This document shows, piece by piece, positions 148-63,319 of a DNA stretch of 64,000 nt. Every line of letters starts with the position of its first letter. Position 1 is the stretch's first letter. The position numbers were made by a program, and so were the translations under genes. Source of the DNA: Haliotis rufescens (Eukaryota); NCBI RefSeq assembly GCF_023055435.1, contig NW_025964001.1, forward strand, positions 29,078,001 to 29,142,000, given 5' to 3'. The notes below the pieces were generated by a model. The model saw only the letters and a program-made list of their open reading frames with translations, did not search any database and was not told the origin of the DNA.

Positions 148-523
148 CTATCATGTCAAGTACGTCTTCTAGGAGATTTTGTGGTGAAGATTCTTCTGCC
201 GCATGAAACATCTTGTCGCTTGAGGTATTGTTCAGGATGCTTGGAACATTATTCATAGGCACAAATCTGCATTGGGTTTGTGTTAGAGGGTGGTTTCTGC
301 AAGGCTGGGAACTATATCTGGTGTTGCTTGCCGCCGGTAGGGTTCCACTGTAGTCTGGACAACTCCATGGGTTCTCTTGGGATACAATTAGAAGAGCCGG
401 CTCGTACATTTGTTGTGGGTCATCCAGACCTGGAAACTTTGTCATATCCAGATTGTAGGTGATGTCGGTTTCGATGAACAGAGGCTGTTGCAGTCGCAGG
501 GGCACAGGAACACCAACCTCCAT
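148..523 (-). CDS. Paralogue A of uncharacterised 'QPLxIDT-LDMSKFPGLDDP' family, coding exon 1 (exon 2 lies beyond the window start)
   Basis: Translates MEVGVPVPLRLQQPLFIETDITYNLDMTKFPGLDDPQQMYEPALLIV...NLLEDVLDMI. Phase-1 donor ATAG|GTAACC at 148/147, equivalent to the donor in the other paralogues. An in-frame upstream ATG at 541 is an alternative start. Confidence 0.85.
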
Positions 524-604
524 TTCAGTATATCTCCTCATGCTTGTGGATGTGGAATGGACAATGATATCATAACATGTTTCAGCTGTACATCATCTTC
601 GCTG

Positions 605-4790: not shown

Positions 4791-4871
4791 AGGACTCACT
4801 CCCCCATGACAAATACTATTTACACGTAATGAAGAGGAACCGCCCTTTATCCTGGTGAATATGGTACATAT

Positions 4872-5002
4872 NNNNNNNNNNNNNNNNNNNNNNNNNNNNN
4901 NNNNNNNNNNNNNNNNNNNNNNNNNNNNNNNNNNNNNNNNNNNNNNNNNNNNNNNNNNNNNNNNNNNNNNNNNNNNNNNNNNNNNNNNNNNNNNNNNNNN
5001 NN
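4872..5002. other. Assembly gap
   Basis: Run of N. Confidence 1.
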
Positions 5003-6525
5003 CAGTAACATATTTAATACAAATACGAACCAGCGCACACAGGGATACAAAATTTCTCAGCAATGTGGAGGGGAATTTGCAAAGGGATGTGTATTCCATA
5101 TTGTAATTGTGGTCCGACAATACAGCTTAATGCCAATCGTTTTATATCAATGCTCACAACAGTTCGTATTTGTTTATGACGGGTTTTCGTTAAATGTTAC
5201 GCGTGTTTCGTGTGTTCTTCGGTGTGTGCTCGTAAGGAAAACAATCTGCACAAAGTGAACTTATTGTACTTGTATTAAGTGAATAAGGAAACGTACAACT
5301 TTATGGATAACATCTTCTGGTTTATTGCATATAGCGACGGTTGTATGTAGATCACGCTAGAACTAGAATGCCAATCAAACAGCATTAAGTGTACCGCTGG
5401 TAAGTCTTTTGTGTGGCATCACATTTTGGTGCATGTTTGAGATAGGTAACCCTAAATACATGTCAGTCTAAACTGTTAATTTTAAATGTTCTCTGTGAAC
5501 GATCCTTTTAACATTTCGACATGAGCAGGTTGATTTTCTTTGGATGGTGTTGAAGGAAGAACACTATATGTTTAACAAAATCATCTTGGATCAGAGACAT
5601 GTTAATAGTTATGTTATCTGTTCTTTAAGTTCGGAATGAAGATTTTTCACCCACTTTATTCAAACCAATATGCTCATGCCTCTGTTACTCTGAACATGTT
5701 ACATATTGTTTATAACAAGAAATATAGTTTCTTGTAACTTTATATTTGACATTTCCAGTTGAACAAATAAGTCCCTCGTCCTTTGATTGCATCTAAGACT
5801 ACCGACAATGAGATATAGTGTGTTGCGATGGAAATTAAAATGTCAAAGTACCGTCCTCATATATAATCCCTGATATAACTGCACTTATCACAAAGCCCCA
5901 CTGATATACCTTCTTATCAAAGTAATAAACACACTTTGTCAGCACATAGTTACAAAGTAAATATGTCGGTAAATTCTTTACATAAGTATATGATCTTTAT
6001 ATGAACCCGTTATGCAATATCTTACCACAACCTTTCTACTTCTCGCAGGGAGCTGCCTGATGGGGGTTCTCGCGGAGGTCGTCCGATAAGTGGCATTGTT
6101 AACACAGGGAATGTGCACTGCTACATAGACCAATCCCACCATCTAATTGTATTCAGCCCCTGGGTGTATTTCAAGTTTATGTCACGGTTTGGCAGATTAC
6201 CTGATAACTGATTTGACAGGAGTTGATAATTACCGACTTCCTAAGCCCTTGATTTGAAGATATTTAATCGTACTTGTAAACATTGCATCACGTATTGTTA
6301 AAGCATTCTCTGCAGAGACGTGGGAATATCGCTGACAAAGATGAGAGCTTCCTGTTATCATAGGTGGTTTTGCAGATTTGGTCTTTCCTTATATATGTTG
6401 GAGTGAATACATCTTGAATGGTTTGCATAACAACAGCTGTCCAAGTTAACATAATACATAAGGAAGTAGTAAAACATTGTTTTGGATATTTGTTAAAGCA
6501 TGGTAACATAATACATGACCTTAGT

Positions 6526-7216: not shown

Positions 7217-8501
7217 TTACGTCACAACACGTCTTGTAAACGGTGGCACTTGCTGATATCCAAGATACGATCCATGGTAACCATAGTAACGACCAATATC
7301 GAAAGTATCGAGTCCTTTACATTGTCGCTTTTGTATGTCAGATTCAAACCCGTCATGTGTTCGCTTCCTCTTGTAAGATACACTATCTTTGACAGCTGAC
7401 AAGGACTGCAGATTACGCACACAGTCAGAAATCCGACGTAATCCAGTATCACCTGTTGGACATGAAGGTGTGTTGTTCTGGACGTGTCTCGCGCCATGGA
7501 AGAATCTGTAATGTATGTGTCCATTCTGCTGGTAATTCCTTGATAACAGAGGTGGGTGTGACAGATCAGAGTGACACAGACGAGGTGTATTCGTGTTTGG
7601 TACTATCGTATTGCTTGAAGTTGTACTCTCTGGAATCTTCATTAATCGTTCAAGTAATCCGTCCGCGCAGGTATCTGAAGAAAAGGAATAATTAATTCGA
7701 TTTAGTGATAATGTAAAGCACATACCAGCAAGAAAATCGACATTATAAACGTTTTTTATCCTGACGTCGTTAATTATTTTTTATACTGATCAAACTTATC
7801 AACAGCAGCATCAGAAATTGATAAGGAAGGAGTCATCAGTAGTCAACAATAAACGACCCGTGAAGATTCCGGGGTAGAATAGGTCTTCAGCAACCCATGC
7901 TTGCCGTATAGGTGACTATGCGTGTCGTAAAAGGCGACTAACGGGATCGGGTGGTCAGGCTCGCTGACTTGGTTGATGCATGTCATCGATCCCAATTGCG
8001 TGGATCGATGCTCATGATATTAATCACTGGATTGTCTGGTCCAGACATGATTATTTACAGACCGCCGTCATATAGCTGGAATATTGCTGAGTGCGGCGTT
8101 AAACAACAACCCAACCAACCAACCAATCAACAATAAACGAAATATTTACCTATCACATTGAGAATATCCTCCAAGATATGTCCACAAGATGCATCAGAAT
8201 GATTGCTAATGTTGTTGTCGGGAAACTTGGAAGGTGTATACACGTGCCTTGGATACTGCACACAACAGGAGGACATGGCATTGTCAACATCTGTAACTTC
8301 ACTGGGCGGAATGGTATATGCACAATGATAGAAATAGTTTGAAACTGTGTCCGGTGTGGCGATCAACAATGCTGGCTGCTGAAGGTGGGAGGGGTCGTCC
8401 AGGCCAGGGAACTTGGACATATCCAAACTGTAGTTAATGTCCGTGTCGATGTAGAGCGGCTGTTTTAGTTGCGGAGACACTGTAGCAGCTGGATGTAACA
8501 T
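7217..8501 (-). CDS. Paralogue B, join(8501..8150, 7674..7217), ~269 aa
   Basis: CACCATG start. QPLYIDTDINYSLDMSKFPGLDDPSHLQQPALLIAT. Donor ATAG|GTAAAT and acceptor CTTCAG|AT join in frame. Exon 2 contains KRKRTHDGFESDIQKRQCK (bipartite NLS-like). Confidence 0.85.
7857..8126 (+). mobile_element. SINE family 2, full length, in the intron of gene B
   Basis: 14-bp TSD TCAACAATAAACGA (7843-7856, 8127-8140). Tail GCTGGAATATTGCTGAGTGCGGCGTTAAAC followed by (CAAC)n. Confidence 0.92.
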
Positions 8502-8905: not shown

Positions 8906-11900
8906 AACCGAATTCATAATTGGCAATCTGAAGTTTATGGTAAGCTAACTATGTTTATATAGTGTCAAATATATTCTGTGGGTAATTTCATAGAGGCCAA
9001 AATGTGTGAAAATATTTCTTTACGTTGTTCTTGTGTTTATCTTGGCACATGTACCATAAGATGTATGTATTGGTTCCAAAAAATGCAGTATTAGTTTTTT
9101 TGAAACAGAAATACATATGTATTAATTCTTATCGGAAATAATTATATATGTACAACAAAATAATTGAAGATTGCCACATATAAGTTAACGTGCTATATGC
9201 ATGCAAAAACCTTGCTTTCAACAATATTTATGTACACCGTGTCCAGATTAGTTTCTCTCCGAAATTATATTCTCAAGTGCCATGTTATGTACTTTACATT
9301 TAAACTGCGCATAGAATAATACACACAAAGAATACTCGTTTTAAATTTCCATAACAAAATATTTATCATGAAAACATACATCTTTGATTTGAATGTATAT
9401 TTGCATGATAAGAGACATTAATAATTCGGAAACCTGCTTACAGCCGTACATCAGATACAGTACAATATATAATACACGAGGCAAAAACGTTGTTTAAGTT
9501 AATAATAATATTGTGGCGTTGGAAGTAATATCCGTGTAAAAAATGAAATCTCTCATGTTTGAAATAAGGGCACAGGAACAAACATAGATTTTGATCTCCA
9601 AGATAAGAGTTGCATACATGACATTTTGTCATTGACAAGTTTATTGAACAACCTCCTAACTTCAATGGTTAATGAATGATTCGAAGCATGGAATTTTAAA
9701 AAAGGATAGCGAGGGAAAATAATCTGAAGTAAATATTATTTTAACAAAAGTTTGATTTGATGCAACTATAATATCTACCTTTTGATGATAAGAGCATGGA
9801 GATTGGCCACATCTTGGAGGATCCTTTAGCATCAACCATTGCCTAGAGAATATACAGGTTATTCCAACCACAACTATCCAAAATATGTTTGTTACATAAA
9901 AAAACACGGGAGACAATATACTCTGTCAATAAATGTCCTTTATAAACCTTTGTATGTAATAACTGAAAACCTATTTTCTTTTTGTTTTGGAAACATCAAT
10001 TTAAACCAAAAGCCTAACGTCCTTTTCTTAAACAAAACATCTCAGGCACACGATCTGTTTCTCAATAAAGCATGTGCTCCTTCGTAATTTGAGGCTTAAT
10101 GTTAAAAATAACTTAAGTCATTCTAAACCCTAGATTTCACGACGCTACAAGGGGACTGGAGAAATCATATGATCAAAGGCGATAAATAGATAAAAATGAC
10201 AAAAGAAAAAATTCCATGATCATACGAAAACACTACTAAAAGCATAGTTTGGTCTACAATTCCGACTATATCTTAAGCATGTGTTTATGAATCATTATGA
10301 AATAGTCATGATACCAGGTGTTCGCGAAAAAAATCTTGTTCAACTGGTAGTACCCTATACAAACACATGTAAAGGCAAATCAGTTGTTAACCTGTAAGAT
10401 CACAGGAACATATGATTCAAGTCAAATTTTGAAATGTCATCCACATTGGTTGGGAGGTTCAAAATTCTAGTTCCAGATAACGGCAAATACACTGCGTTTA
10501 ATCCTTGCTCCTTTGACATGTAACAGACTCATTAGTTTTTCTAATTATATGATATTTAACACCCAAACATGTATCCTTATAATAAATATATGGAATATTA
10601 CCGCTGATTGTAAATACATAATTCATACTTCGAACATCACACCAAATATGACAGCCTTTGTTGTAAATGTTAATTATAGGCTTCCTGGTGACACAGACAG
10701 GCAGACAATAGTTTATTAATGTCTCACTTCTGTACATACATAAAACAGCTTGGTACAACTTGACAAAGATAGAATGTACAGAACCATTCAAAAGAATTAT
10801 GAGTGACAAATTATCATAAAATTTATACACAAATGATATAAAGATGATATAGTAAAACGTTGTCCATATATAAGATGCCTTCTACGATTAAGAATTAAAA
10901 AGCAGACTTTGGCAAGTATAAAACACACACTGGAGTCACTGAAAATTAAACAAAGTTTGTCGATATCAGGTTTATCTAAAACTTTATAAGATTTAACAAT
11001 ACATACATTAAAAAGAGTTGCCCTGATATCGTCACATAATACGCAGTGAAACAAAACATGGACATCGTCTTCTACGCTGACATTACAGTGAAAACATTTT
11101 CTATCGTGGACAGGTATACCTTCGTGTATTCATTCATACACCATTGTTCCACAACATTGTTGTTGACACAAGATTCATCAAATATCTCTACACAATACTG
11201 TTAGTCTTCCCTTTGTGATGCATTCTTTGTCTGTTGAAGTAAGAACCACGGATGATAAAGAGTAAAACGTGACGGATGTGTATTATATAATTGATCTGTT
11301 CAAACGATAAACTAAGTATGAAGACCTGTGTTTCATTTGAACACAAATACTTGTATTTCTTTTCTGAAATGTACTAGGGGCTTGGTTAATCTCCATCAGT
11401 TAACTGTCTCTCATTTCAATGTTACTCATTGTTATGTCACGAACGTACCACAACTATTCTGTTTATGGTTATATACGCGTGACTGGTATGGCTATTTAGG
11501 CGGGGAAAGAAATAACACATGCAAATGCTAAACATTCGATTACAACTTCAGACTATTTTACATTTTCATATGTATAATATGATGGATATCTGACAAATGA
11601 ACCATTACATGTGAAGTTCCTCAGTTACATTTATTATTAAACATTGGGCGCGTAGAGCATTTCACGCTTCATATCACTTTCATCAGCTGTTGTTCATGCA
11701 TCAAATGAACTACATGTATTCAGAATGCAACACATGAGAACGAAAATTAATATGAAAGATTGGGGTAACAAATGAAGAATCAGTGACAATATGTGTCTCA
11801 TTCATTTATTAATTTAGGTAATTGTAGAAAAATATTTATCTGTACCTGCATATTTATGTACGTTTGATGTTTCTTCCAGCAAATTATTGGTTTTGCTACA

Positions 11901-15938: not shown

Positions 15939-17800
15939 GAAGAAGAAGAAGAAGAAGAATATTTTATTATAGTGTCACCCGCTGTACATATAAAATGACA
16001 AGGCAAGATGTAAAACTTCAGCGGCCGGCCAAAATGGCCTACGAGACACTAAAAGACTCATAAAAACATTATTTTATATATGTACACACCACATTTAATA
16101 GCAATTATGAAAATAACATTCATAATATTATCCCCCATACAAAAATCCTATATACACACAACCACATCCATTCCCACATCCAGACCTTCACTCACATCAG
16201 CTTACGCAAACCACGCAAACACACCCGCACATTCAGACACACCCAAACCCTCATTGACATCACTTCAATCACATCCGAACCCTCACCGTCACAAATCACT
16301 CTCACACACACCCTATTTCTTAAACACACCCTCACCTGTATCCGTTCCCGCATCCACACCAACTCCCTCATCCGCACCCATCAACCACGTCCTCACTCGC
16401 ATCCTCATCCCTCCCCGTCTCCACAAAAAAGAAGCACCAACCACGCACAAAGACACCAACAAAGTAACAATCTACCGCCGCATACACACACTCCCTCCCA
16501 ACGACCCCCCCCCCCCCCCCCCCCACCCCCACCCCACACACACACACACATACAACATGAAACAAGCACCCATCACAACCTCTCGGGCCAGCCACCCATC
16601 ACAACCCCCACACATCAACCCTACAACACAGCAAAACATGATAGATGATAAGAATTATCACACGCACACAACTACCCAGTTTATTGTTTTATATATTTTC
16701 TTCTCCGATACATTGAGAAGATTAATGCAGCAAGTGGTTTAACCAGTTCGTCGCACTGCATTAAGAATACGGTTTGGTCTGCCGGAGACATCGTAATAAA
16801 CGAGGGGTTAATAAGGGATACTTTCTGCCAAAGATTAAGTCTTAGCTCTCTATAACAGTCACACGTTACCAAAAAGTGAACTTCATCTTCAACAGTTTGG
16901 CCGTTACATAGTTTACAGACGCGTTCAGAAACAGGGGTTTTCGGGCGTGTATAACGACCTCTTTCTAATTCTAAGGGTAAAGTTCCACAGCGAAGTTTAG
17001 CTAAAGTGCTTCGTCGTGATCTATCCAGAATATGGCGTACATAAAATGAAACATTCAGTGTATTTTTAAACAATCTAAACGTTCTAAGCTTATTGCCTGT
17101 AGTATGGCCAGTGTCATTCCAAACTCCACGCAACCAGTTTTCTCTGTCAAGTTCTATCAGTTTTGATTTCAAAATTTGGAAATCTATATTACCAATATTA
17201 TAGAGATCCAAAAATGGTAGATCAAAAGAACCAAACATTCTTACAACTCTGCTGTCCCAGGACTTTCGGTATGACAGAGACCAATTTCTGATACGAGCTA
17301 TAATTCTCTGCGGGGGAGCTGAATTCAACTTCTTCCAGAAACGCACAACTTCGATTTTATGTTTAGTAATAATCGATGACCAACCCATCTCCCCTCTTAC
17401 GGCCAAATTAGAAGTAGTTTTTCCTACACCCAAGAAAAAGCGGCACGCTCTATTTTGGATGGCATTTATGCAACTAAATTCTCTGGTTCCCCAAATTGCT
17501 GCACCATACGTTAAGATAGGTTGTACAAGATTGTCATACAAAGTACTGAAAACATCATAGGTCATTCCTCCAACTAATTTAAATTTACTAATAATTACAC
17601 TGAGGGCTCTTCCGGCAGATTTAGCAATTTGTTTAGCTGTGAAATTTAAATCTAGGTGTTCCTGGAGCCAAAGTCCCAAATATTTATATGCATTACAAAT
17701 TTCAATATTCTCTCCTCCACAGTGAAAACTGACACTGGAACGCGTAACAGACTGCTGTCTATAATGGACAATTTTAGTTTTTTTGGTATTAATTTGAAGA
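15939..17800 (-). mobile_element. 5'-truncated non-LTR retrotransposon (RTE-X-like), ORF2 C-terminus plus GT-rich 3' UTR
   Basis: ORF 16681-17679 reads YKYLG...KLRTFRLFK...LAKLRCGTLPLELERGRY...ERVCKLC..VEDEVHFLVTC (CCHC). Ends AATAAA followed by (TTC)n. Confidence 0.9.
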
Positions 17801-18079
17801 CGCCATCGTCTGCACCAATTATCAACGCTATTACTCGAGTTAGGTAAAAAGACACAAAGAGCCTTTGACGCTTATTGTTATACAGCGTGCTTTATAGCCC
17901 ACTTACAAGGCGATGGTGTCATTTGTTTACAACGCGCCCATAATGGTAGGCTGTGGGAGATCTGGATTTAGTGACGTTACTCATTGTATGGTGACAGTTG
18001 AATCCAGCTCTATTGCGTCTACGTTCACAAGCCGCTTATATCATTTAGCCTTAGAGCTTTAATAATACATTTTAAAAGT

Positions 18080-18690
18080 TGAAAAATGCAACGTACAGAG
18101 ATTTACAGCTAAATTTAGATGTGGTACCCTCCCTCTGGAAATTGAACTCGGTCGTTTCTTGAAACCAAAAATTCCCTTACATAATCGTATTTGTAAACAC
18201 TGTAATACAAACAGTTATGTTTGGGGTTATGCCTCGTCTCTTTGCCCAAAATTTTGTCTCATGACCCCTATAGATCAAACCACATTCCTTATGAAGTGCG
18301 ATAATTTATCCTATTCTGTAGCTGCACTAATTAAATCCATGTACAAACGTAGGTTATATAACAACGATTCATAAACCCATTCCAGTATTGTATGCCTCTG
18401 TATATTTTATATTTGAGAAAACATGTAATTGTATGGCAATGCTTGTCATAAATGTACGAGCATTATACTTTTATCTCGTATTTTGTGCACCATTAACAAA
18501 TAAACCACTGTCCACTATAACTATTTTAGCACTTGCGGTGCTTTTAAGAACATTAGTGTCTAATAGGCCCACGCTGGCCGGGCGATGTATATCTTTTAAT
18601 ATATTTTACCTCTTGTATAAATTGAAGTAATTTTATGTATACACCGCTGGACACTTAAATAAACTATTTTTCTTCTTCTTCTCTTTCTCT
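18080..18690 (+). mobile_element. Degenerate 3' fragment of a related RTE-X-like LINE
   Basis: AKFRCGTLPLEIELGRF..RICKHC. 3' UTR motif TAGTGTCT..TAGGCC..GGCCG shared with 16020-16050. AATAAA followed by (TTC)n. Confidence 0.85.
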
Positions 18691-21210: not shown

Positions 21211-21333
21211 ATTGATTGGATGAGTACAGTCGGTCCCAAGTGATTTGATTGGACGCTGCCACAGTGAGTCTTAGTGACCTGAGTGACACGAGGGGTATAA
21301 AGTGACGTGATGTAATCGGTTGTGCCATCATTC
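21211..21333 (+). promoter_or_regulatory. Core promoter of C: two inverted CCAAT boxes, TATA box, Inr-like site
   Basis: ATTGG at 21215 and 21248 (33 bp apart), TATAAAG at 21296, CCATCATTC about 30 bp further downstream. Confidence 0.7.
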
Positions 21334-21354: not shown

Positions 21355-22131
21355 ATGATGGACGTACCTCCCCACCTGCTTCAACCTCTGTGTATCGACA
21401 CCAACATCACCTACGAACTGGATATGTCCAAGTTCCCAGGTCTGGATGACCCACAACATATGTACCAGCCTGCTCTGTTGATAGCCACTGACTGGAGCGA
21501 CTACCATGAAGCACAACTTGTCACACATGACGCCGATGTTCCCGAGGATGACTTATACTCTCTCATAGGTATGTGTCTATCAAATCTATTAAATTGCATG
21601 AATCAGAAACATTTAAGTGTATCTTATACAATCCTTCAGCCAGTATTATTATGCAAAGGTTATGCAAATATTTCAGCTAAATCTAAATCTAGATATATCT
21701 AATCTAAATCATTACCAGATATTGCAAAACATATTGTTGTATATTATATATACTTATATCTGCATTGTTATTTTTCAGAATCCAGTCAGGTCCTGTTCCC
21801 GGAATTTACAGATTCAAGCAGTGATGAAAATGCCAATTTCGAAGCTCTCTTGGATGAAGTGATCTCCTCAACGGCATCTTGCGGCAACCTTTGGGATGAA
21901 TCAGATTTCACTTTGTCGGATTTAAAATCCTCAACAGACTGTTGTTACCAATCAGAGTTATCGCCCCTAGGCGGAAGGGGCCAGAAGCGACGTCATTCCA
22001 GTGATACTGACCATTTGTATACCAGCAAGAAATACAGAATGACAGAAGTTGACACGCATACAGCAATGCTCCCATCGCTTGTTTCTGTGTACCCAACTTC
22101 CAATAATTGCATCTTTGGAAGAGATTCATAG
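21355..22131 (+). CDS. Paralogue C, join(21355..21568, 21779..22131), ~188 aa
   Basis: ACCATG start. QPLCIDTNITYELDMSKFPGLDDPQHMYQPALLIATDWSDY. ATAG|GTATGT and TTTCAG|AA join in frame. Contains FEALLDEVI and RGQKRR..KKYR; ends PSLVSVYPTSNNCIFGRDS*. ATTAAA at 22338. Confidence 0.9.
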
Positions 22132-30814: not shown

Positions 30815-31628
30815 ATGTTGGACGTACCTACTCATCTCCTCCAAACTCTAAGTATCAACACCAACATCACCTACGATCTGGATATGTCCAAGTTCCCAGG
30901 TCTGGATGACCCACAACATATGTACCAGCCTGCTCTGTTGATAGCCACTGACTGGAGCGACTACGTCTACCATGACGCACCGTGTGTCACACATGACGCA
31001 AACAGTGTTTCAAGTTCCCATGAATCGGACGGTGTCTTAGAAAGCGATTTATACTCTCTTATAGGTATGTATACATTGTCACCAGAATCTGAACGTAAAA
31101 GTAACGGATATTGAAAGGATCTTTACGTTTTTTACATTATTCATTTTTCATGTGCTTATGCATATAATTTTGAAAATGATCCTATAGTGAACAAATTTAC
31201 TTATGAACTGCTCTTTTTTTCTTACAGAATCAACTGATGCCTTGCTGACAGACCAAGGTTTCGCTGTCGACGACATTACTATGCAGACACTCCTCGATGA
31301 CGTCCTTGCAGATTCAGTGATACCAAGTGACATATTTGGATTAATTGACTTGGATACTGACAGTCAAAGTTCCTTGTCAACAAGTGATTCTCCACAAACA
31401 GACCATACAACCCCCAACATTGGATTAACCTGTTCCCCGGACATGGAAGAATTACTCCCTGTTAGAACTTGCGGTAGAGGTCAAAAGCGACGTCTCTCCG
31501 ATGACGCCTGTTACCCGGATGTTGAAAAAAGATCAAAGATGATGGAGTCATTCACGCAAGCGTTACCTTATTTGGTAGTGAATTTGTGCCACGAATCCAA
31601 GAATGGTGGAATTGGCAGAGAGTCATAG
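30815..31628 (+). CDS. Paralogue D, join(30815..31064, 31228..31628), ~216 aa
   Basis: MLDVPTHLLQTLSINTNITYDLDMSKFPGLDDPQHMYQPALLIATDWSDY. ATAG|GTATGT and TTACAG|AA join in frame. Contains MQTLLDDVL and RGQKRR..KRSK; ends SKNGGIGRES*. AATAAA at 32063. Confidence 0.9.
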
Positions 31629-33620: not shown

Positions 33621-34503
33621 TCGCATGCCAGAAACTAGTCCTGCACCATGACCGTGGAATATATTTATTTTATGAAAAAAAATAATCTAGAAATGCATAC
33701 AAAAGCAAGTCTAGGCAGCTCAAGCTAGCTCTATTCCTGAAATCAGCATAGGGATTTTTTTGATTTTTTTAGAGTCAAGAAGGATATTGTGTAATATAAG
33801 ATTTCAGAGACTAAATGTTAGTCTAGCCAGAAACCTATAATTGTGGTTATTGTTATGCCTCTAGGTTTGCCAGCACCATATCTGCGATCAAAACTGGCAA
33901 ACGCCTAAGACTTCCATCACTTAGGTTTTTCTCTCAGATCACGCTGACACGCCGTGATACAACTGGAATACTGTTCATAGGGGCTTTTAACCAAACTCAT
34001 ACTGCAGTATCGCTCGTCAACATGATGCGCGAAGCTATCCCATTCTGTGGCGCTTTCACACCTCCTTTCTCGCTAGCACTTTCTTTTGACTGAAATTGTG
34101 TCAATGGCGGTGACTCCAGTTGAGCAGAACAAGCTTACAGCTTTCTCGAACACCTGGCGTCTTCGTTGATTTTCTGCAATCCATTCATATAATTGGCACC
34201 ACTAAATTATCTCTTATCTAAATTATCCTGGCTCAATTAACTTGACTGATTGCTTTGTAACACATAGATATGCCTATATGTGCTACTAAATATGTCAAAA
34301 AGATGCAAGGAGATGATATGTCAAATAACATTTGAAACATGTTGTTGTAGTTGAAGGAATCCTATGCAGTAAGTGTGTCAATGAGTCGTACGCCGTTTCG
34401 AAATTTCGAAACCATAATCTTATTATACAGAAAAAAGTAGATAAGTATCACATACTGCTAAATACGGTAAAACGGTTTGATGCCTTAAACTTCATGCAAT
34501 ATA

Positions 34504-34639
34504 NNNNNNNNNNNNNNNNNNNNNNNNNNNNNNNNNNNNNNNNNNNNNNNNNNNNNNNNNNNNNNNNNNNNNNNNNNNNNNNNNNNNNNNNNNNNNNNNN
34601 NNNNNNNNNNNNNNNNNNNNNNNNNNNNNNNNNNNNNNN
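34504..34639. other. Assembly gap
   Basis: Run of N. Confidence 1.
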
Positions 34640-34644
34640 TCCCA

Positions 34645-35529: not shown

Positions 35530-36010
35530 TTTATCAGTTCAGTTCAGTTTATTATTCTCCAAACCACCGTCGGTGGTACAAAAGAGTACAAAAGTACAAG
35601 CATGTAAACAAAGTATTAATATGTGACAAGATGACAGTATGTCATGCATGAATATGTTATATCTTTTCTGTTTTGTGTTTTCTTACTGCTTTAAATATTT
35701 CATCAATATATCTCGATAGGTTTTTAAGATACCTCGTGTTTTGACTGGATAATAACCTCTTGAATGTATATAAATTAGACCAATTATCTTGGTAAGCAGT
35801 TGGTAAGTATACACTTCTATGTTTTGACAGAGGCTGGCATCTAAACAGATAATGGAATTCGTCTGCAACTGAAGGAGAGTTGCACAGTTCACATACACGA
35901 TCCTCTTTCTTTACATTATTCCAACGGCCGGTTTCAATAGGTAAATTATGGTTACATGTTCTAAATTTTAAGATTGGAATATACATATTTTTATCGATGT
36001 AGTGGTTCTT
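35530..36010 (-). mobile_element. RTE-X-like LINE 3' fragment
   Basis: KFRTCNHNLPIETGRW..EDRVCELC..ADEFHYLFRC. AATAAA followed by a (CTGAA)n tail. Confidence 0.85.
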
Positions 36011-39000
36011 TGATCTGTTGACTCCTAGACAAGAACCCCTGGGGTCTACTGCAAGACGGTACCGTGAAGATGCGGCATATTGACACGGATTACGTGTCAT
36101 TTTACTGCGAAGGTCAACTGTAATTAAGTCTTCCAATGGATAAAACTGAACAGATAATCTAAACCTGAATAGATAATCTATTGTTACAACAACAATAATA
36201 TTTTTTTTTTAAGAGTAATTTACGCTCACCTATCTCACGCATCGCTCAACGAAACAATGCGATGCTAGACTAATGCTGTCATTCATGACATGAGGGTACA
36301 ACATGGCGGTCATCAATAAACGAATTGTGGGTCTGTTGTATTAATCAAAGTACATAAACATCAGGGGAGAAGCAGATTAGGGAACAGAGGTGCTGACATT
36401 ATCTTTAGGCGTTGTAATACATGACGTAAGAGCGGCCATTGCCATTCAGGCGTAATATATAATGGGCATCCCATTCATGATGTTTACAAATCTGCCATGT
36501 CAAAGTGTTGTGCTTGTGTGCTTTGATCACAGAAGCTTCAACTTTAAGACTCGATTTGAGCTGAATGTCTTTGATCAGTGAAACCGCTTAATGCGACATT
36601 GATAAGATGTACACAAGGCTATTTGCATTTTATCACACAAACTGAACCCAGTTTACAAACATATTAGTATGATGAAAGAGGTTGAACTTCCGTTATGAGG
36701 ATAAATCAAAGAAGCTGTCTTTGTAAACACAGCAAAACAAAATAGCTTTCATTGCTAGCTTATGTTTCGAGGCATTTAGATTGTTAAATCTTTTTAAATT
36801 AGTTCATGTTGGCGAATGTCAGTTTTATGCATTGTATGTTTAATTTGTTTACAACTGACATGTATATTTTACCAGCTATTTTAAAATGTATTCCTGGAGC
36901 GGCGTTTACGTAATCATTCTTGCTTGTTTACTTATCCAAATATAAGGTAAGCGAAATAAATTTGTTTAAATCAGATATGTTGGCTTATATAGTCAATTTA
37001 TCTTGACAATGAAGACATACAATCTAATGACGCAATTCATTTGTGTTTAAAATATTGAATTCTTAAACTCTCGTAATACAATAATATCGCAATTGACATT
37101 AAATTCAGTTGTTATGAAAATAATAGTGTCGATGGTATACTAACTTCGGAATTTAACAGAAAAGCGTCATACCTTTTATATATTTAGGCAAAGAAACGTG
37201 TGTACGTTTGTGTGTCAAGTTATGTCGATTTTAGTATGAAATTATAAACTTATCAATCGTGCATTGAAGTTACACTTAGAAGTGTGTAGTTGTATAACTC
37301 ATTTGGGTTTACCTTTATCTTTCTAATTATATCTAGTTTGAAGGAAGTAAAGGAATTTCGTACTCTATATTTTAAATCTTACTAGGTTCAGACAAAAAGC
37401 CAAAGCGTCTTTGCAATTATGGAAAAAATATCCTTAGATTCTTATCAAAATTGGTAAACAATTTCAAAATACACATTCAAATGTTCTACTTTCTATTATC
37501 TCTCCTTCATCACTACACCGGGGCAGTCTTTGCGTCCACATTGCTAAGCCATTCATAAAAGACATTTTGATTTAGGATACTTCTCCTAACCCCTTTCCTA
37601 CCGTTTATTTGTTCAATTACTTGGTTGACATAACATTAGTGTTGGTACAAAAGAAAATCAACATTTAGTGGTGCTTACCAGTCGTCTCCACAGGCAGAGG
37701 AGCCTAGGGGTTTACTGGTCGAATGACAATTTACGGTTTGAACAACAAAGATCACCAATGCCTTAATTACGTGTCGGGATGCTTCATTGTTCCCTTACAA
37801 AAGACATATTCAAACCGACATTAACCTGCGTCTTTAACAATACCTCATGCCATTTCAAGGCTAATTTTGATCTCAATAGAACCATTCAACAACACGCACA
37901 CAGCGGACGCGTGAAGATAAACCTGTCAGACGCCATGTACAGAAATCAGGGAGTGGGCATTAAGAACTGTAACGTACATCTGTTGTATTGATTAACGGCT
38001 ACAGGAGATGAAAGGGGTGGCAGATAAGAAACACCATCAGCACCAGACACTTTAGTCTGGGTCTTCATCCCTGGCAATTGATGACACAATATACTGACAA
38101 TCGTCACTCAAGGGAAATGTTTAATTAACGTTCCTGCCGACGATATTTCTTAAAAACCGACAGGAGGTCTTAACACATTTATGGCGTCCATGTTGATTAT
38201 TTTACGTAGTAATCAGAGCAACCTTACAAACTGGTGGCCTTATGTAAGATGCCAGTATCCATTTCTAAATAGTTGATGACAACATGGAACGGGCTTATGC
38301 AAGCTTTGTGGACTTAATCTAGTTTATAACAAGTTCGTTTAAATCCTTGTGTCATTACAACACTGCCCTTAGGTTTCCGCTTGATAAAGTATAAGTAGAA
38401 AGTATGTGGTATTTTATTGTCTAATCTATTTATTTGAGCACAGAATATTTGAAAAACATAGGATTTCAAAAGTCACGACTTAGACATCTTTACGAGACGT
38501 TCATAACCGTCATAAGTTCATATTTGAAATATATTATGACATTGGTATTGCAATATATTGTTATGATAATCTTTGACTGTATGCTATACCTACTGATGGG
38601 TCCTTGAAATTAATGCTCATAAGTTTCTGAATATTCCGAGGATATGTGTTTTTGAAGTTTAGTTATTAATGTTTGTGTTTATACTGATTTGATCAGTTTA
38701 GATGCTTTGTATGGCTGTATTGGTTTGTTTGTGATGATATTATATTGCCTTTTTGTACATTGTTTGTATGTTATATATTACATTTTAAAAGCATTTTACA
38801 TACCTCATAACCTACAACTGACATCGTGTACATTGCGTTAGATTGAAAATAATCATCAAATATATCATCTTACCATTCCAAGGCTTACATTGTAACCACT
38901 CTTCATACATGCCGACATTAATGAACGACAACTTTAACACTTCTGGCGTCATGTTCAGAATATAGTTATCAAGCATAATATTCAATAGTTCGCTTTTTTA

Positions 39001-43674: not shown

Positions 43675-44760
43675 ATGGGCGTTCCGACACATCTGTTACA
43701 GCCTCTTAGTGTTGATACCAGCTCAAGTTATGATCTCGACATGTCCAGGTTTCCAGGCCTGAATGATCCAAGATACAAAAATGAACCTATGTTAATGGTT
43801 GCACAGAGATCTACAAATTACTGTGGATATAACAACATTCAATGGACGTGTTCTGGCAGAAGGGAGAGTTCAATCAGGCTCCCCCAAACAATTCACCATG
43901 CGGATACCAGTTTAACTTCCAGATGTCCACCAATGCATTCTTCTGTGCACCCAGTGGATGTTCCTGACGATCTGCTTGAAATCACTGGTAAGTGGAGCTC
44001 GGTACTGATAATGCATACTTCATGCTTATGTTCTGGAAATATTTCTTCATGGATAGTCTTGGATGAATTAGAATTTTGTTGTTGTCAAATCGAATATTAT
44101 TATGACCTCTACTTATACCAAATGCCAAATATAAATGTACTTATTTAGATTTATAAATAATTCAAATATGAATATTCAAGCCTTGCTTCTTTATTCTCCT
44201 CAGATCTCCAAGCTCAGGATTTGTTGGAACTTCTGGATACAAAAGAATATGAGATTCTCGTCGATGATATTAGTCAAGAACTGCAGAGACATGATCAGTT
44301 ACCAGATATACAGATCCTTGCAGTCGAACAAAAAAGGGATTGTACTCATGATCAAAGACAATTGCATACAAATTACCATCGACCAGATCTACATTCAACG
44401 CCATTTGAACAAAGGAGATTCAGTTGTTACCAAAGTGAAATACCTCAGCACCATCCAAGGAATACCACGCCGTACAACAGGTCTTTAAATATGTGCAAGG
44501 ACTTCAAAGGATATGTGTATCCCACATACAACATGAGCACAAACAGATGTGTGGCTGTAAATGCACCGGTTAATTCATTCGGAAATACTTTAGTAAACCC
44601 TGTCGGTAATAAATCTGTAGCCACAGCTGTCAGGAACAAGAGGAAATGGTCAAGTGATAGTGACAATTCCCATAAGAGGAGATGTCTGCAGGCGAGACAT
44701 GTGGATTACCTTGGGCAATATTCTGTGATAAGACAAGGGTCTCAGATAGGAGTGATGTGA
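43675..44760 (+). CDS. Paralogue E (most divergent), join(43675..43987, 44204..44760), ~289 aa
   Basis: MGVPTHLLQPLSVDTSSSYDLDMSRFPGLNDPRYKNEPMLMV. ACTG|GTAAGT and CCTCAG|AT join in frame. Contains DLLELLDTKEYEILVDDI and KRKWSSDSDNSHKRRC. AATAAA at 44935. Confidence 0.88.
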
Positions 44761-50300: not shown

Positions 50301-50757
50301 TTCCTCACATCAACATTACGCATGACGATGCCTTCCTTAGATGTCACTCATTGTATCAGTTTACAAATAATGGTGTTGCTTAGGTGGTTAAACAAAGGAC
50401 ACGTAATTGTAATATGCTTTGCATCTGGTGTGGATCTAGTATTTCCCAAGTGAAATTATCAAAGAAATGTGCCAGATTACATTCTAAGTCCCTTCTTATA
50501 TCCATTACGTAATAGTATGAAACTTATTCTGTTCTTAAGTTCAACATTTTAGATTTTTTTCTAAAAACATACACAAACTTATGAAACAAAACCAAATGAG
50601 CTAATTTGACCAAAGACGGTCAAGCACAATTAGTCCCCTGCGGTCTTGGCTCAGATTGACTGGCGGACATGCAAGCTTTGAAAACCAGTCACGTAAGCAC
50701 TCAAATTCGTTTTCATATTACAGAAATGATTGATGTGCAACACTAGAGCAGCTTAGC

Positions 50758-51535
50758 GGGGAATTGGGGAGATACCTATTAAACATCCATGTTAAGTTAA
50801 GAATGGTATCATATTGGGGCAAATTAGTTCTATCAGAAACCAAATTATCAGGTATAGTGTACAAACTTATGTTCAAACTCCAAATTGCCCACCCAGAGTT
50901 TAAGTTCCCACTTGTAAATGAAATCCAACGTATTTTACAAAGTACAGGTCTGAATCACATTTGGCTGCCTCAGGAATTTCCCAGTGTACAATGGATAAAG
51001 GCTAAAGTCAAAACTGTCCTTATAGATCAATTTTTACAAAGCTGAAGGAGTAGTAAAGTGAATTTCTCAAAAGGACACTATTATAATTTGTATAAAGATA
51101 TCCTCTCAGTAGAAGACTACTTATTGTATTTACCTCATAATTTACGCATCTGGCTTACCAAAATCAGAACCACCATCCACCGACTCCCAATTGAAACTGG
51201 CCGATGGTATAACCTCAATGGGGAAGATAGGCTTTGCTCTCTCTGTAAAAATAAAATTGGTGATGAATTCCATTTTATACTAGAATGCCATGAATCGGAT
51301 CATTTAAGAAATAAATATCTCCCATTATATTATTGTAAATATCCAAATACTGAAAAATATGTTGCACTTATGACTTGTTCTTATAAACCTCTCCTCTTAC
51401 GACTAGCCCAGTATGTAAAATATGGACTGCGTATGCTCCACTAACTATTGTCTCATTTCTTTGTATATATGTCTCTCTTGTCAACTTCTTTATGTCACCT
51501 AGGTGATTCATTAGAAATAAACATCTTCATCTTAA
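50758..51535 (+). mobile_element. RTE-X-like LINE 3' fragment with in-frame stop
   Basis: GELGRY..RMVSYW...KIRTTIHRLPIETGRW..DRLCSLC..GDEFHFILEC. AATAAA followed by CATCTT repeats. Confidence 0.88.
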
Positions 51536-54200: not shown

Positions 54201-55207
54201 ATGCCGGACGTACCTAGCCACCCGCTTCAACCTCTGAGTATCGACACCAACATCACTTATGCCTTGGATATGTCCAAGTTCCCAGGTCTGGATGACCCAC
54301 AACATATGTACCAGCCTGCTCTGTTGATAGCCACTGACTGGAGCGACTATGTCTACCATGACGCACAGTGTGTCAAATATGACGCAAACAGTTGCTCAAG
54401 TTCCCATGAATCGGACAGTCTATTAGAAAATGATTTATACTCTCTTATAGGTATGTATATTGTCATTGTGATCTGTGTGACAGTATTAGTTTTAGCAATC
54501 ATAACGTGAAAGTAATGCACATGGAAGGGATTTTGTCGATTCTATTTACATTTGTTATGTGGCTCATGAAAATAATGCTATGTAAGTGAGACAGAGAAGG
54601 CCACATGGTCATACGACTTAGATTTATTTGTAGACGGCTAATATTTTCTAGTCCCATTTATCATATGGTGAGTATCTGCCTCACTGGTACGAAGATCTTG
54701 AACCATGATGTATCAATGACATGGTAACCAGATTAATAATGCTTTTTTGTGATCAGTTCTGTTGTTCATGTTACTGTTTTCTTTCCAGAATCCAGCCAGG
54801 AGTTCCTAACAGATGTCGACACCAGCAACATAATTGACGATCAAACTTTCCTGTCTCTTCTGGATGACGTCGTTGAAGACAGTGACGTGATCACCCCCAT
54901 TGACATCAGTCCAGGCACATCCAACACCATAACAGAATCTCTAGAAGACACCTGGGATTGTCTTGACGATGAAGTTCTTTTCCACACAGACGAAACAGAG
55001 CAGCACACCTGTGAATTTGTCTCAAAAGAACAGTTATCTCCCTTTGCATCATATATCAGGGGACAAAAACGACGCCGAAATGACGAGAGCATAAACGTGT
55101 CTGCTAACAAGAAATCGAAAATGGGGGATAGATCGTCTCTGCATATTCCAACCATGGTTACCGTTTGTTCTAGGTCTAATGGATGTGAACTCCAGAGGCA
55201 ATCATAG
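54201..55207 (+). CDS. Paralogue F, join(54201..54450, 54789..55207), ~222 aa
   Basis: ACCATG start. QPLSIDTNITYALDMSKFPGLDDPQHMYQPALLIATDWSDY. ATAG|GTATGT and TTCCAG|AA join in frame. Contains FLSLLDDVV, WDCLDDEVLF and RGQKRRR..KKSK. Confidence 0.9.
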
Positions 55208-60771: not shown

Positions 60772-61591
60772 ATGCTGGACGTACCTAACCACCCGCTTCA
60801 ACCTCTGAGTATCGACACCAACATCACTTATGCCTTGGATTTGTCCAAGTTCCCAGGTCTGGATGACCCACAACATATGTACCAGCCTGCTCTGTTGATA
60901 GCCACTGACTGGAGCGACTACGTCTACCATGACGCACATTGTGTCAAATATGACGCAGAGGATTCAGCAACTTCGGACAACTTAGACGATTTATTTGTAG
61001 ACGACTTACATTTCTTAATTGGTACGTATTATATTAACATCAGTCTATATCACTAATATCTGCCTATGCAGCTGTTAATCTATTATTGATTTTGGAAAAT
61101 TTTAACCTGATTAATAATACTTTGTTGTGAGCAGTTGTTCATGTTGCTGTTTTCTGTCCCCAGAATCAAGCGAGGCGTTCTTCACAGATGTCAGCAGCAG
61201 CAACATCATTGACGATCAAACTTTCCAGACTCTTTTGGATGACGTCATTGCAGACAGAGACGTCATCGCGGCCATTGACATCGATCCTGGCACTCTAAGC
61301 AACATAACGGAACCTCTAGAAAACATCTGGGATTGCCTTGATGATGAAGTTCTTTTCCACACAGACAAAACAGAGCAGCACACATGTCACGACGCAGTAT
61401 TTGTCTCAAAAGAACAATTACCTCCCTTTGTGTCATGTATCAGGGGACAAAAACGACGCCGAAATGACGAGAGCGAAAACGAGGTTGCCAACAAGAAATC
61501 GAAAAAGGCGGATATATCGTCTCTGCATATTCCAACAATAGTTTCAGTTTGTTCAAGGTCAAATGGGTGTGAACTCCAGAGGCAATCATAG
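60772..61591 (+). CDS. Paralogue G, join(60772..61021, 61164..61591), ~225 aa
   Basis: ACCATG start. QPLSIDTNITYALDLSKFPGLDDPQHMYQPALLIATDWSDY. ATTG|GTACGT and CCCCAG|AA join in frame. Contains FQTLLDDVI and RGQKRRR..KKSK; ends SNGCELQRQS*. Confidence 0.9.
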
Positions 61592-63319
61592 TAGAGAATT
61601 TCTTAAATATCTTATTTTGTGCCCAATCAATCTCAGTGCTTTGACATTTTGTTGACTTCGAATTACTTGGAAAACTCCATATAGTGCATTTGTACCAAGT
61701 GACCTATAGTTCTATTTGTATTATACATGTGTATGAAACACTATTATTATATACAAACATTCAATGACCATTACACTATTTTGCGCACTTAGTGCCATTT
61801 TATATTGATATTATTTACATCTGTTATTTATCTACAATGTTCTGTTACCTGATTAAACTTGAATGAGTGAAATACGCCGTTCTTTTATTGATGCTGGACA
61901 AAACGTTGAAAAGGGTTACTCTGACGCTTATGCCAACATGGAAGTTTGGACTGGGAATTGTTTTGTGTTTACGGACAATTTACCTTCTGACTTCTATGTT
62001 GCCTGGATGCCCATATGACTGTTGTTGGTCCCAGTGTGCAGGAACAGCATATGAAGGAAACAATCATGCACTATACCTATGGGACACTCTTCTGCAGTGG
62101 TAACATTCAGACAGAGCGGTACTTCATGCAGGAAACATCCAATAATCATACGGGGTCATAACTGATACGGTTTGATATGCTTTTACTACAGGTTAGAATT
62201 TCAATGCTACCCGTGGTGATATCGAATGTATTGAATGCATTGTCTTGCTGTGGAATTCATTGAAACACTACAATCCTCCAATGTGTAAATTATTTGGCTG
62301 ACAAATAATCCATACAGTCTTATCAAAACACAATGTGTTGTAAATAATTCTGGTCGGACACTCGTTGAATGAACATTGAATGAATGCCAAGCGGATTAAT
62401 CCTTAAAACACTACTTTGTCAAAACCTTATACATCCTTCTGTTTAATTTATAGCTCACGTTATCTAACAATTGATCCCATTCACGATAAACCCGTATTGA
62501 TAGACTTGTCGCTTCCTTGGCGAATAGTTTTAATCAAGGGATTAGTCCAGGGCCCCAAGCAATCTTTCACCAGATTGAAATAGTGTTAGCCCTTCATAGA
62601 ATTACTTTCCTTGTTTCCATTAGAACGGCCATACCTGTTAATTGCGTGTCTTAAAGGAAAACAAAGGTTCATCAAGTGCTAAAGGTTTGAGCAATGCTTT
62701 AATGATTTCTTTTCTTTAGAGCACTTACTGCAGAAGCTTTGTATAGATTGTAATCTATGAATGCAAAATTGGAGGTATTGTCAATTCTTTAATAGAATGG
62801 TTTTCCAAATCATTTTCTGGTAATGACTGTGGTGTCTTATCAAAATAGTATTTACACTAGATGTACGCTGGAAGTTACCTTTATGTTTCGTGATTATTAA
62901 TAATCTGTAAAATCTCTATGGATTACGTACATTATATGTATATCTACCTCATAGTCCTTATGGCCGGGTATTGTATTCATTTTGTGAATTTTATATCAGT
63001 CTTTAATACGTGACACAGTAATGAAATTATTTTCTCCTTCTTGCTATGGGCCACCGTAGTCATGGTTGAATGTCAGTTCTTGAGTATATTCATATTCGAG
63101 GAAGAACACTGACGTAATAATCTTCAAATAATATAAAAATATAAAAATGAAATCTGAATTATTCAGCCTTATGGGTTTCTATGTAATACTGTATACTCTT
63201 ACTTAACACTTACAAGTACATAATACCAATTAGATTGAAATTTGAGTCTGTGCTGTATTTTAGTACCTTTGGTGTGTTTTATATCTAGTATTCAACGTGT
63301 ATGACTCATTCTTGTTATA

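Follow-up and report, generated by a model that had tools for sequence, protein, structure and literature searches.

A mollusc-wide family of clustered abalone genes encoding candidate nuclear docking cofactors

The two-exon gene c3 of Haliotis rufescens had been predicted to encode a nuclear transcriptional cofactor that lacks a DNA-binding domain. It lies in a 64-kb window, as we call the whole stretch of DNA analysed, together with closely related genes whose proteins are mostly of low-complexity sequence. The question raised by this locus is what such proteins are for, and in particular whether a short conserved module docks them on a nuclear partner and to which class that partner would belong.

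Gene cluster and family range

A motif scan of the window revealed seven paralogues of a single two-exon gene, c1 to c7 (Table 1), which are also the only matches above threshold of a profile built from 38 module sequences. No eighth copy was found in the window; the next profile match, at position 62683 (E 0.03), is not a module. All copies have a phase-1 intron immediately 3' of an acidic amphipathic segment. The start codon of c1 is the ATG at 541 or that at 523, on the minus strand. The gene originally proposed at 21355..22131 is confirmed by the gene model, by a public protein and by contigs that skip the intron. The c3 protein, of 188 amino acids, is that of H. rufescens LOC124146629 (P0001; 100% over exon 1, identical in length and sequence), and the intron is missing from a contig of run X1 and from one of run X2, which come from two studies and for which the RNA origin is an automated guess. 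The intron is retained in run X15, and the region is uncovered in X6. The gene c3 is expressed and its intron is spliced.

Table 1. Gene copies in the window and elements of copy c3
Feature	Position	Strand	Basis or remark
c1 exon 1	148..541	-	Exon 2 beyond window edge; P0015 (H. rufescens LOC124146619) begins at ATG 541
c2 exon 1	8150..8501	-	269-aa model; length and sequence equal P0018 (H. rufescens)
c2 exon 2, coding part	7217..7674	-	Middle non-acidic; bipartite basic motif present
c3 promoter-like region	21214..21301	+	Inverted CCAAT at 21214 and 21247; TATA at 21296; consensus match only
c3 exon 1	21355..21568	+	Gene model
c3 conserved module, residues 10-44	21382..21486	+	Profile alignment; AlphaFold extended chain
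Tract of identical or almost identical DNA in c3, c4, c6, c7	21418..21504	+	Likely gene-conversion tract
c3 acidic amphipathic helix A, residues 65-71	21547..21567	+	Directly 5' of phase-1 intron
c3 intron	21569..21778	+	210 nt, GT-AG
c3 exon 2, coding part	21779..22131	+	Gene model; contig support
c3 acidic amphipathic helix B, residues 92-100	21838..21864	+	Translation, alignment
c3 bipartite basic motif (predicted nuclear localisation signal), residues 141-158	21985..22038	+	Pattern and alignment
c4	30815..31628 (exons 30815-31064, 31228-31628)	+	216 aa; equals P0003 (H. rufescens)
c5	43675..44760 (exons 43675-43987, 44204-44760)	+	289 aa; orthologue P0016
c6	54201..55207 (exons 54201-54450, 54789-55207)	+	222 aa; orthologue P0005
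c7	60772..61591 (exons 60772-61021, 61164-61591)	+	225 aa; equals P0006 (H. rufescens)

Inverted CCAAT boxes occur in the 200 nt upstream of the start codons of six of the seven copies (c1, c3, c4, c5, c6 and c7), with two each in c1, c3 and c4 and a background of 0.1 per 200 nt. TATA-like boxes lie upstream of four of the seven; in c5-c7 the last CCAAT precedes the box by about 30 nt. The cluster is interrupted by assembly gaps, seen as runs of N at ~4870-5010 and 34500-34640 (267 N in total). ORF remnants located between the paralogues, at 16681-17871, 18066-18374, 10797-11129 and 35657-36208 on the minus strand and at 50734-51444 on the plus strand, presumably resemble the C-terminal part of LINE reverse-transcriptase proteins. 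The abalone family is larger than these seven genes, with other Haliotis paralogue groups (P0010, P0037, P0009, P0025, P0032 and P0007) absent from the window, and H. cracherodii possesses multiple nearly identical proteins within one group (P0023, P0024, P0027 and P0029).

A search with the module profile retrieved 65 representatives at E <= 0.001 among 1.84 billion; three of them (P0076, P0079 and P0085), in which the deeper profile found no domain, were dropped as false. Twenty-six proteins were looked up by cluster, and every named one is from a mollusc and is annotated as 'uncharacterized' or 'hypothetical'. The named genera are Haliotis, Lottia, Patella, Pinctada, Argopecten, Mizuhopecten, Pecten, Ylistrum, Mytilus, Magallana and Solemya. 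By sequence, the family is mollusc-wide and extends beyond abalone to limpets and six bivalve lineages; the gastropod/bivalve split dates to the Cambrian. The order of the elements, namely the module, an acidic helix at the end of exon 1, a variable middle and the bipartite basic motif, is kept in the limpets and bivalves (Lottia, Patella, Pinctada, Argopecten, Mizuhopecten, Pecten, Ylistrum, Mytilus and Magallana), while the Solemya protein has no clear helix. The module was confirmed in none of 54 candidates from viral contigs. Among 70 candidates from metagenome contigs, the one confirmed is a 12-residue, 92% match in an unrelated ORF (L001:3001-3036), which we take to resemble the C-terminal region of a glutathione transferase.

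The conserved module and its identical DNA tract

The module is densely conserved over 35 residues, with alternating hydrophobic positions. In an alignment of 38 modules, Tyr20 and Phe27 are invariant (38/38), Leu12, Asp23, Pro28 and Leu41 are found in 36-37 (Pro28 in 36), Gly29 and Pro39 in 34 and Ser25 in 22, and residue 30 is hydrophobic in all 38. The length of the loop differs by up to eight residues across members, and the module is neutral to acidic with no basic cluster. Among the older paralogues, the module displays pS values of 0.43-1.03 and pN values of 0.11-0.32, and is under purifying selection at the protein level. Two proteins, P0019 and P0038, contain tandem modules, with two full copies each; P0019 has four stretches matched by the profile, of which two are full and the others partial. 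This tandem arrangement fits a self-contained binding unit. Both proteins have the bipartite basic motif and lack an acidic region.

The surroundings of the module vary. The limpet members (P0040 and P0055) carry a paired CxxC motif of four cysteines after the module, and among 39 unnamed relatives a His-x-Cys-x-Cys motif lies downstream of the module in 11 and a Cys cluster upstream in 6. The members with Cys/His clusters are subsets of P0042-P0070 and P0080-P0099, and the downstream motif is found in many bivalve-type members. These clusters beside the module represent a possible zinc site. The oyster members P0096 and P0097, from clusters of 45 and 99 members, comprise many sequence variants, and in P0098 the first part of the module is kept and is followed by a frame shift. 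The C-terminus is Arg-x-Ser, a possible phospho-motif, in c3, c4, c6, c7, P0007, P0008, P0009 and P0055, and differs in other members.

AlphaFold modelled the module as an extended chain with short turns only, one of them at residues 24-26, and with neither paired strands nor tertiary packing. The module pLDDT was 75 with an 18-sequence alignment (pTM 0.28) and 83 with 38 sequences (pTM 0.34). High local confidence without packing is usual for peptides that fold on a partner, and is not proof of such folding. The module is thus predicted to be extended and non-globular, as expected for a partner-folded peptide. A complex of two module copies, predicted without an alignment, scored 0.01 and was given no weight either way. 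A sequence search of the PDB returned one match, in a reductase (E 1.4), and with the deeper profile it returned nothing; fold searches that used the model of the module as query also gave no match, a result that carries little weight for an extended chain of 45 residues. A CIITA fragment from the ESM Atlas (score 0.80) was rejected because shuffled proteins reach the same level a third of the time, and querying the ESM Atlas with the Mytilus module returned nothing. Given the near-exact match in the unrelated metagenome ORF and the weak one in the reductase, the core of the module looks like a generic turn pattern.

At the DNA level, 79-96 bp are perfectly identical, synonymous sites included, among c3 (21418-21504), c4 (30878-30980), c6 (54265-54349) and c7 (60842-60937). 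The synonymous difference among these four copies is 0.00-0.22 in the module versus 0.30-0.81 in the tails; the contrast is significant for the well-aligned pair c6/c7 (Fisher p 0.001) and for c3/c4 (Fisher p 1.6e-11), where the alignment of the tails is less reliable. A tree of the tails of 29 named Haliotis proteins groups them by orthologue across species, with supports of 100/99 for c3, 100/98 for c4 and 97/85 for c7 with its asinina partner, and separates strongly acidic from near-neutral tails. Identical module DNA in genes with old and diverged tails points to gene conversion, which is the likely cause of the tract and would keep the module alike among the abalone paralogues. At residue 35, a single site within the tract, the rufescens and cracherodii members of the c3, c4 and c7 groups have His and all three asinina members have Gln. 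A nucleotide-level element may instead account for the identity; RNA structure as its cause was rejected, the fold being in no way unusual (z -0.03). Short contigs covering just this tract appear in two runs, which is a hint only. As a localised conversion tract, it would be a clear example of homogenisation confined to a single module, with divergence in the remainder of the gene.

Acidic helices, tails and the basic motif

The 12 acidic motifs listed in the original prediction are all present in the translations (12/12, checked by eye). A lone acidic-helix pattern is no more frequent in acidic tails than expected by chance (shuffle p 0.07-0.35), and what reaches significance for helix A, as far as sequence comparison goes, is its constant placement at the exon-1 end and not the pattern alone. 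A second pattern, resembling helix B, is present in five of ten named non-abalone proteins (p 0.007-0.046). Seventeen of the 39 unnamed relatives, versus 0.5 expected, display a signature of a helix followed by read-through of a splice donor. This signature was defined post hoc and at the protein level only, as a hydrophobic helix pattern followed by Gly and the residue expected from a donor, in relatives that look like ORFs reading through from exon 1; it suggests that helix A and the position of the intron are both conserved.

The middle region has a net charge of -19 to -28 in c3, c4, c6 and c7, and is near neutral (-4 to -6 over 168-204 amino acids) in c1, c2 and c5, the values for c5 and c6 being taken through orthologues. 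Using a general composition rule without a shuffle control, 39-residue windows that are acidic and rich in W, F, Y or L were found in 19 of 23 proteins; there are none in c2, the Solemya protein, P0019 and P0038, and only one in c1. The activation-like acidic region that had been anticipated for the family is, by this composition, found in most members and is absent or marginal in c2, c1 and some relatives. Two copies, c2 and c1, have almost no acidic middle.

The bipartite basic motif is present, as had been claimed, in every complete copy (6/6, by eye). The pattern, which was fitted to these genes, matches 27 of 30 full-length family proteins versus at most 0.1% of tail shuffles. Among sequences not used for the fit, the strict pattern is found in five of the ten named non-abalone proteins, and a relaxed post-hoc version in all ten, at 13-47 residues from the C-terminus (shuffle p <= 0.002). 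In an alignment of 16 proteins, the first two basic residues of the motif constitute the sole invariant columns outside the module. The motif is a predicted nuclear-import signal, kept across gastropods and bivalves.

None of the seven copies in the window has a hydrophobic 19-mer above 1.27, a hydrophobic N-terminus, or a C2H2 or CxxC motif. Searches of Pfam returned no family for 13 exon pieces at E up to 10 and none for 38 modules, and only weak, unrelated matches, of E 0.056 or worse, for 20 full-length proteins. The predicted lack of zinc-finger, DNA-binding and membrane features holds for the abalone copies; that of a zinc finger does not extend to the limpet members with their paired CxxC.

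Candidate partners and known cofactors

We put at about an even chance the proposal that the family members act in the nucleus as cofactors by docking on a single conserved partner, which is probably a transcription factor. The bipartite motif, by its sequence pattern, would likely import the protein into the nucleus. The 35-residue module would likely wrap around a single conserved partner, most probably a DNA-binding transcription factor, and the model together with the conservation suggests that it binds as strand, strand, turn, variable loop and strand. Helices A and B, from their composition and position, would likely contact or recruit coactivators. This proposal is favoured by the element order kept across gastropods and bivalves, by the extended module without packing and by the tandem modules, as well as by a layout parallel to that of OCA-B, for which the available part of PMC13043367 describes a docking peptide plus an acidic activation stretch. 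It is opposed by the members in which the acidic region is absent or marginal (c2, c1, Solemya, P0019 and P0038), by the resemblance of the module core to the FPx-hydrophobic form of a ribosomal RACK1 motif, and by the Cys/His clusters that flank the module in many non-abalone members, so that the module may be metal-assisted and not purely disordered. Furthermore, nuclear enzyme inhibitors and unstable degron proteins also combine a basic motif with acidic helices.

In an unlikely competitor, the proteins regulate, within the nucleus, an enzyme of signalling or of the cell cycle. The module would then attach by strand addition to a phosphatase, kinase or ubiquitin ligase, as in Cip/Kip proteins or calcineurin regulators, leaving the helices to serve as secondary contacts or as degrons. 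An N-terminal extended binding region with a C-terminal bipartite basic motif is also the Cip/Kip layout, and in its last strand the module has Pro39, Leu41, a hydrophobic residue at position 43 and then Ala, His, Asp, Val or Thr, a series that resembles the calcineurin docking pattern PxIxIT. CCAAT-box promoters, which are common in cell-cycle and stress genes, precede six of the seven copies. Nevertheless, Pfam yields no match in the exon pieces and modules, or at significant E in the full-length proteins, the CDK-inhibitor domain included; the conserved unit of 35 residues exceeds a single docking motif, and two position-conserved acidic helices are explained more easily as coactivator contacts. 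A different division of labour, which we regard as improbable, is that the same module competes for its partner, so that paralogues with a neutral middle (c1, c2 and c5) block or repress and the family comprises activators and antagonists. The two tail classes, set apart in the tail tree, and the multi-module proteins without an acidic region (P0019 and P0038) would agree with such decoys, but the near-neutral copies retain helix A and often helix B.

A ribosome-associated role, with binding to RACK1 through the core Phe27-Pro28-x-hydrophobic, as in ZAK, SERBP1 and LARP4 and with shuttling to the nucleus, is very unlikely in our estimation, even though nearly all modules have the form FPxL or FPx-hydrophobic (Phe27 and the hydrophobic residue 30 in every module, Pro28 in all but two). 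This is the RACK1-interacting motif given in the accessible parts of PMC12823453 and 10.64898/2026.08.26.747346, and its FPx-hydrophobic form also appears in that of PMC13293227. The CR1 of LARP4 is described in the available text of 10.1101/2024.11.01.621267 as 13 residues long, with Ser in position 7, residues 5-7 in a helical turn and FPPLP invariant; supposing, as we infer, that the 13-mer ends in FPPLP, the Ser would lie two residues before Phe, as does Ser25, and the model of the module has a turn at 24-26. The motif is, however, common and not specific, being carried by ~6% of ribosome-detected proteins according to this partly available literature, and the core recurs in the unrelated metagenome ORF and, weakly, in the reductase. 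Gly29 and the two flanking strands fall outside the motif as published in those portions, no second RACK1 helix motif is conserved in the family alignments inspected by eye, and the basic motif is kept family-wide. We give equally little credence to the module being a small autonomous, possibly zinc-assisted fold or a self-association unit. The dense conservation with alternating hydrophobic positions and the Cys/His motifs of the relatives and limpets would suit such a fold; against it are the two AlphaFold runs without tertiary packing, the abalone copies devoid of a Cys/His cluster and the lack of a structural match to the short extended model, the last being weak evidence. Likenesses to the adenovirus E1A, SMAD-interaction, LIM-binding, DCAF7-binding and TFIIS-N-binding motifs were also considered and rejected, as each covers a few residues only.

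Returning to cofactors that dock on a transcription factor, a more elaborate version can be drawn, which we offer as speculative and rather doubtful. The family would constitute an ancient mollusc-wide cofactor system with a new type of docking module. All paralogues would plug into one shared transcription factor, with conversion holding the plug constant across the abalone genes; the interchangeable tails, acidic or neutral, would decide between activation and antagonism and so provide a single factor with tunable outputs. A 35-residue motif shared from abalone to oysters and mussels suggests a conserved interface on a hub, and provides a defined bait for finding that hub. Regulators without a DNA-binding domain are easily overlooked by annotation. 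Searches of open-licence papers by six gene or protein identifiers and by topic returned no paper on the family, nor was it found by Lottia identifier or motif in the four supplementary files of a screen for spiralian motifs (PMC7441323), where entries under other identifiers would escape. The family is real and, on these searches, undescribed; it brings a new conserved module to a layout of a known type.

A comparison with known systems would place this layout among the docking cofactors. The abalone copies have no DNA-binding domain, signal peptide or membrane segment, and carry a conserved motif of nuclear-import type, as judged by its pattern. The docking-plus-tail design of the original prediction agrees with these features, with the extended module and with the positioned helix, although the profiles of the OCA-B, VGLL, CITED and SERTAD families to which it had been likened give no match. 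OCA-B, OCA-T1 and OCA-T2 (POU2AF1-3) have a short conserved docking peptide, to which the module would correspond, and lack a DNA-binding domain of their own, as the abalone copies do; they also have an acidic activation stretch, to which the acidic region of most members may correspond by its composition. The OCA-T1 and OCA-T2 genes lie in a gene cluster, according to the accessible part of PMC13043367. By contrast, the OCA peptide binds both the POU domain and DNA, whereas the module described here is neutral to acidic, and the POU2AF profile of Pfam matches none of the 13 exon pieces, 38 modules and 20 full-length proteins. The TRIP-Br/SERTAD proteins, which the family would resemble, are coregulators of small size that act in the nucleus and combine a conserved N-terminal region with an acidic activation region, as stated in the available part of PMC2671481. 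They differ in the SERTA heptad domain, which Pfam does not find here, in that the basic motif of the present family is C-terminal and bipartite, and in that its module is modelled as extended and not helical. VGLL and CITED proteins also combine a docking peptide with low-complexity regions and no DNA-binding domain; the Pfam profiles Tondu and CITED C-terminal domain gave no match here, and their defining motifs are not seen in the family alignments. Cip/Kip proteins resemble the family in their N-terminal extended binding region, disordered middle and C-terminal bipartite basic motif, and differ in the CDK-inhibitor domain, which was not matched; a module starting ~10 residues from the N-terminus leaves no room for a cyclin-binding arm. 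The RACK1-motif proteins ZAK, SERBP1, LARP4 (CR1) and RNF10 have, in the parts of the sources available, the same Phe-Pro-x-hydrophobic core after a short turn, which in the present family is embedded in a 35-residue unit with a required Gly, two flanking strands and a conserved bipartite basic motif. By analogy, the family would work like OCA-B/OCA-T or SERTAD, while appearing to fall outside both of these groups as well as outside VGLL, CITED and Cip/Kip. If its partner is a transcription factor, molluscs have their own cofactor of the OCA-B/VGLL type, tandemly expanded in abalone.
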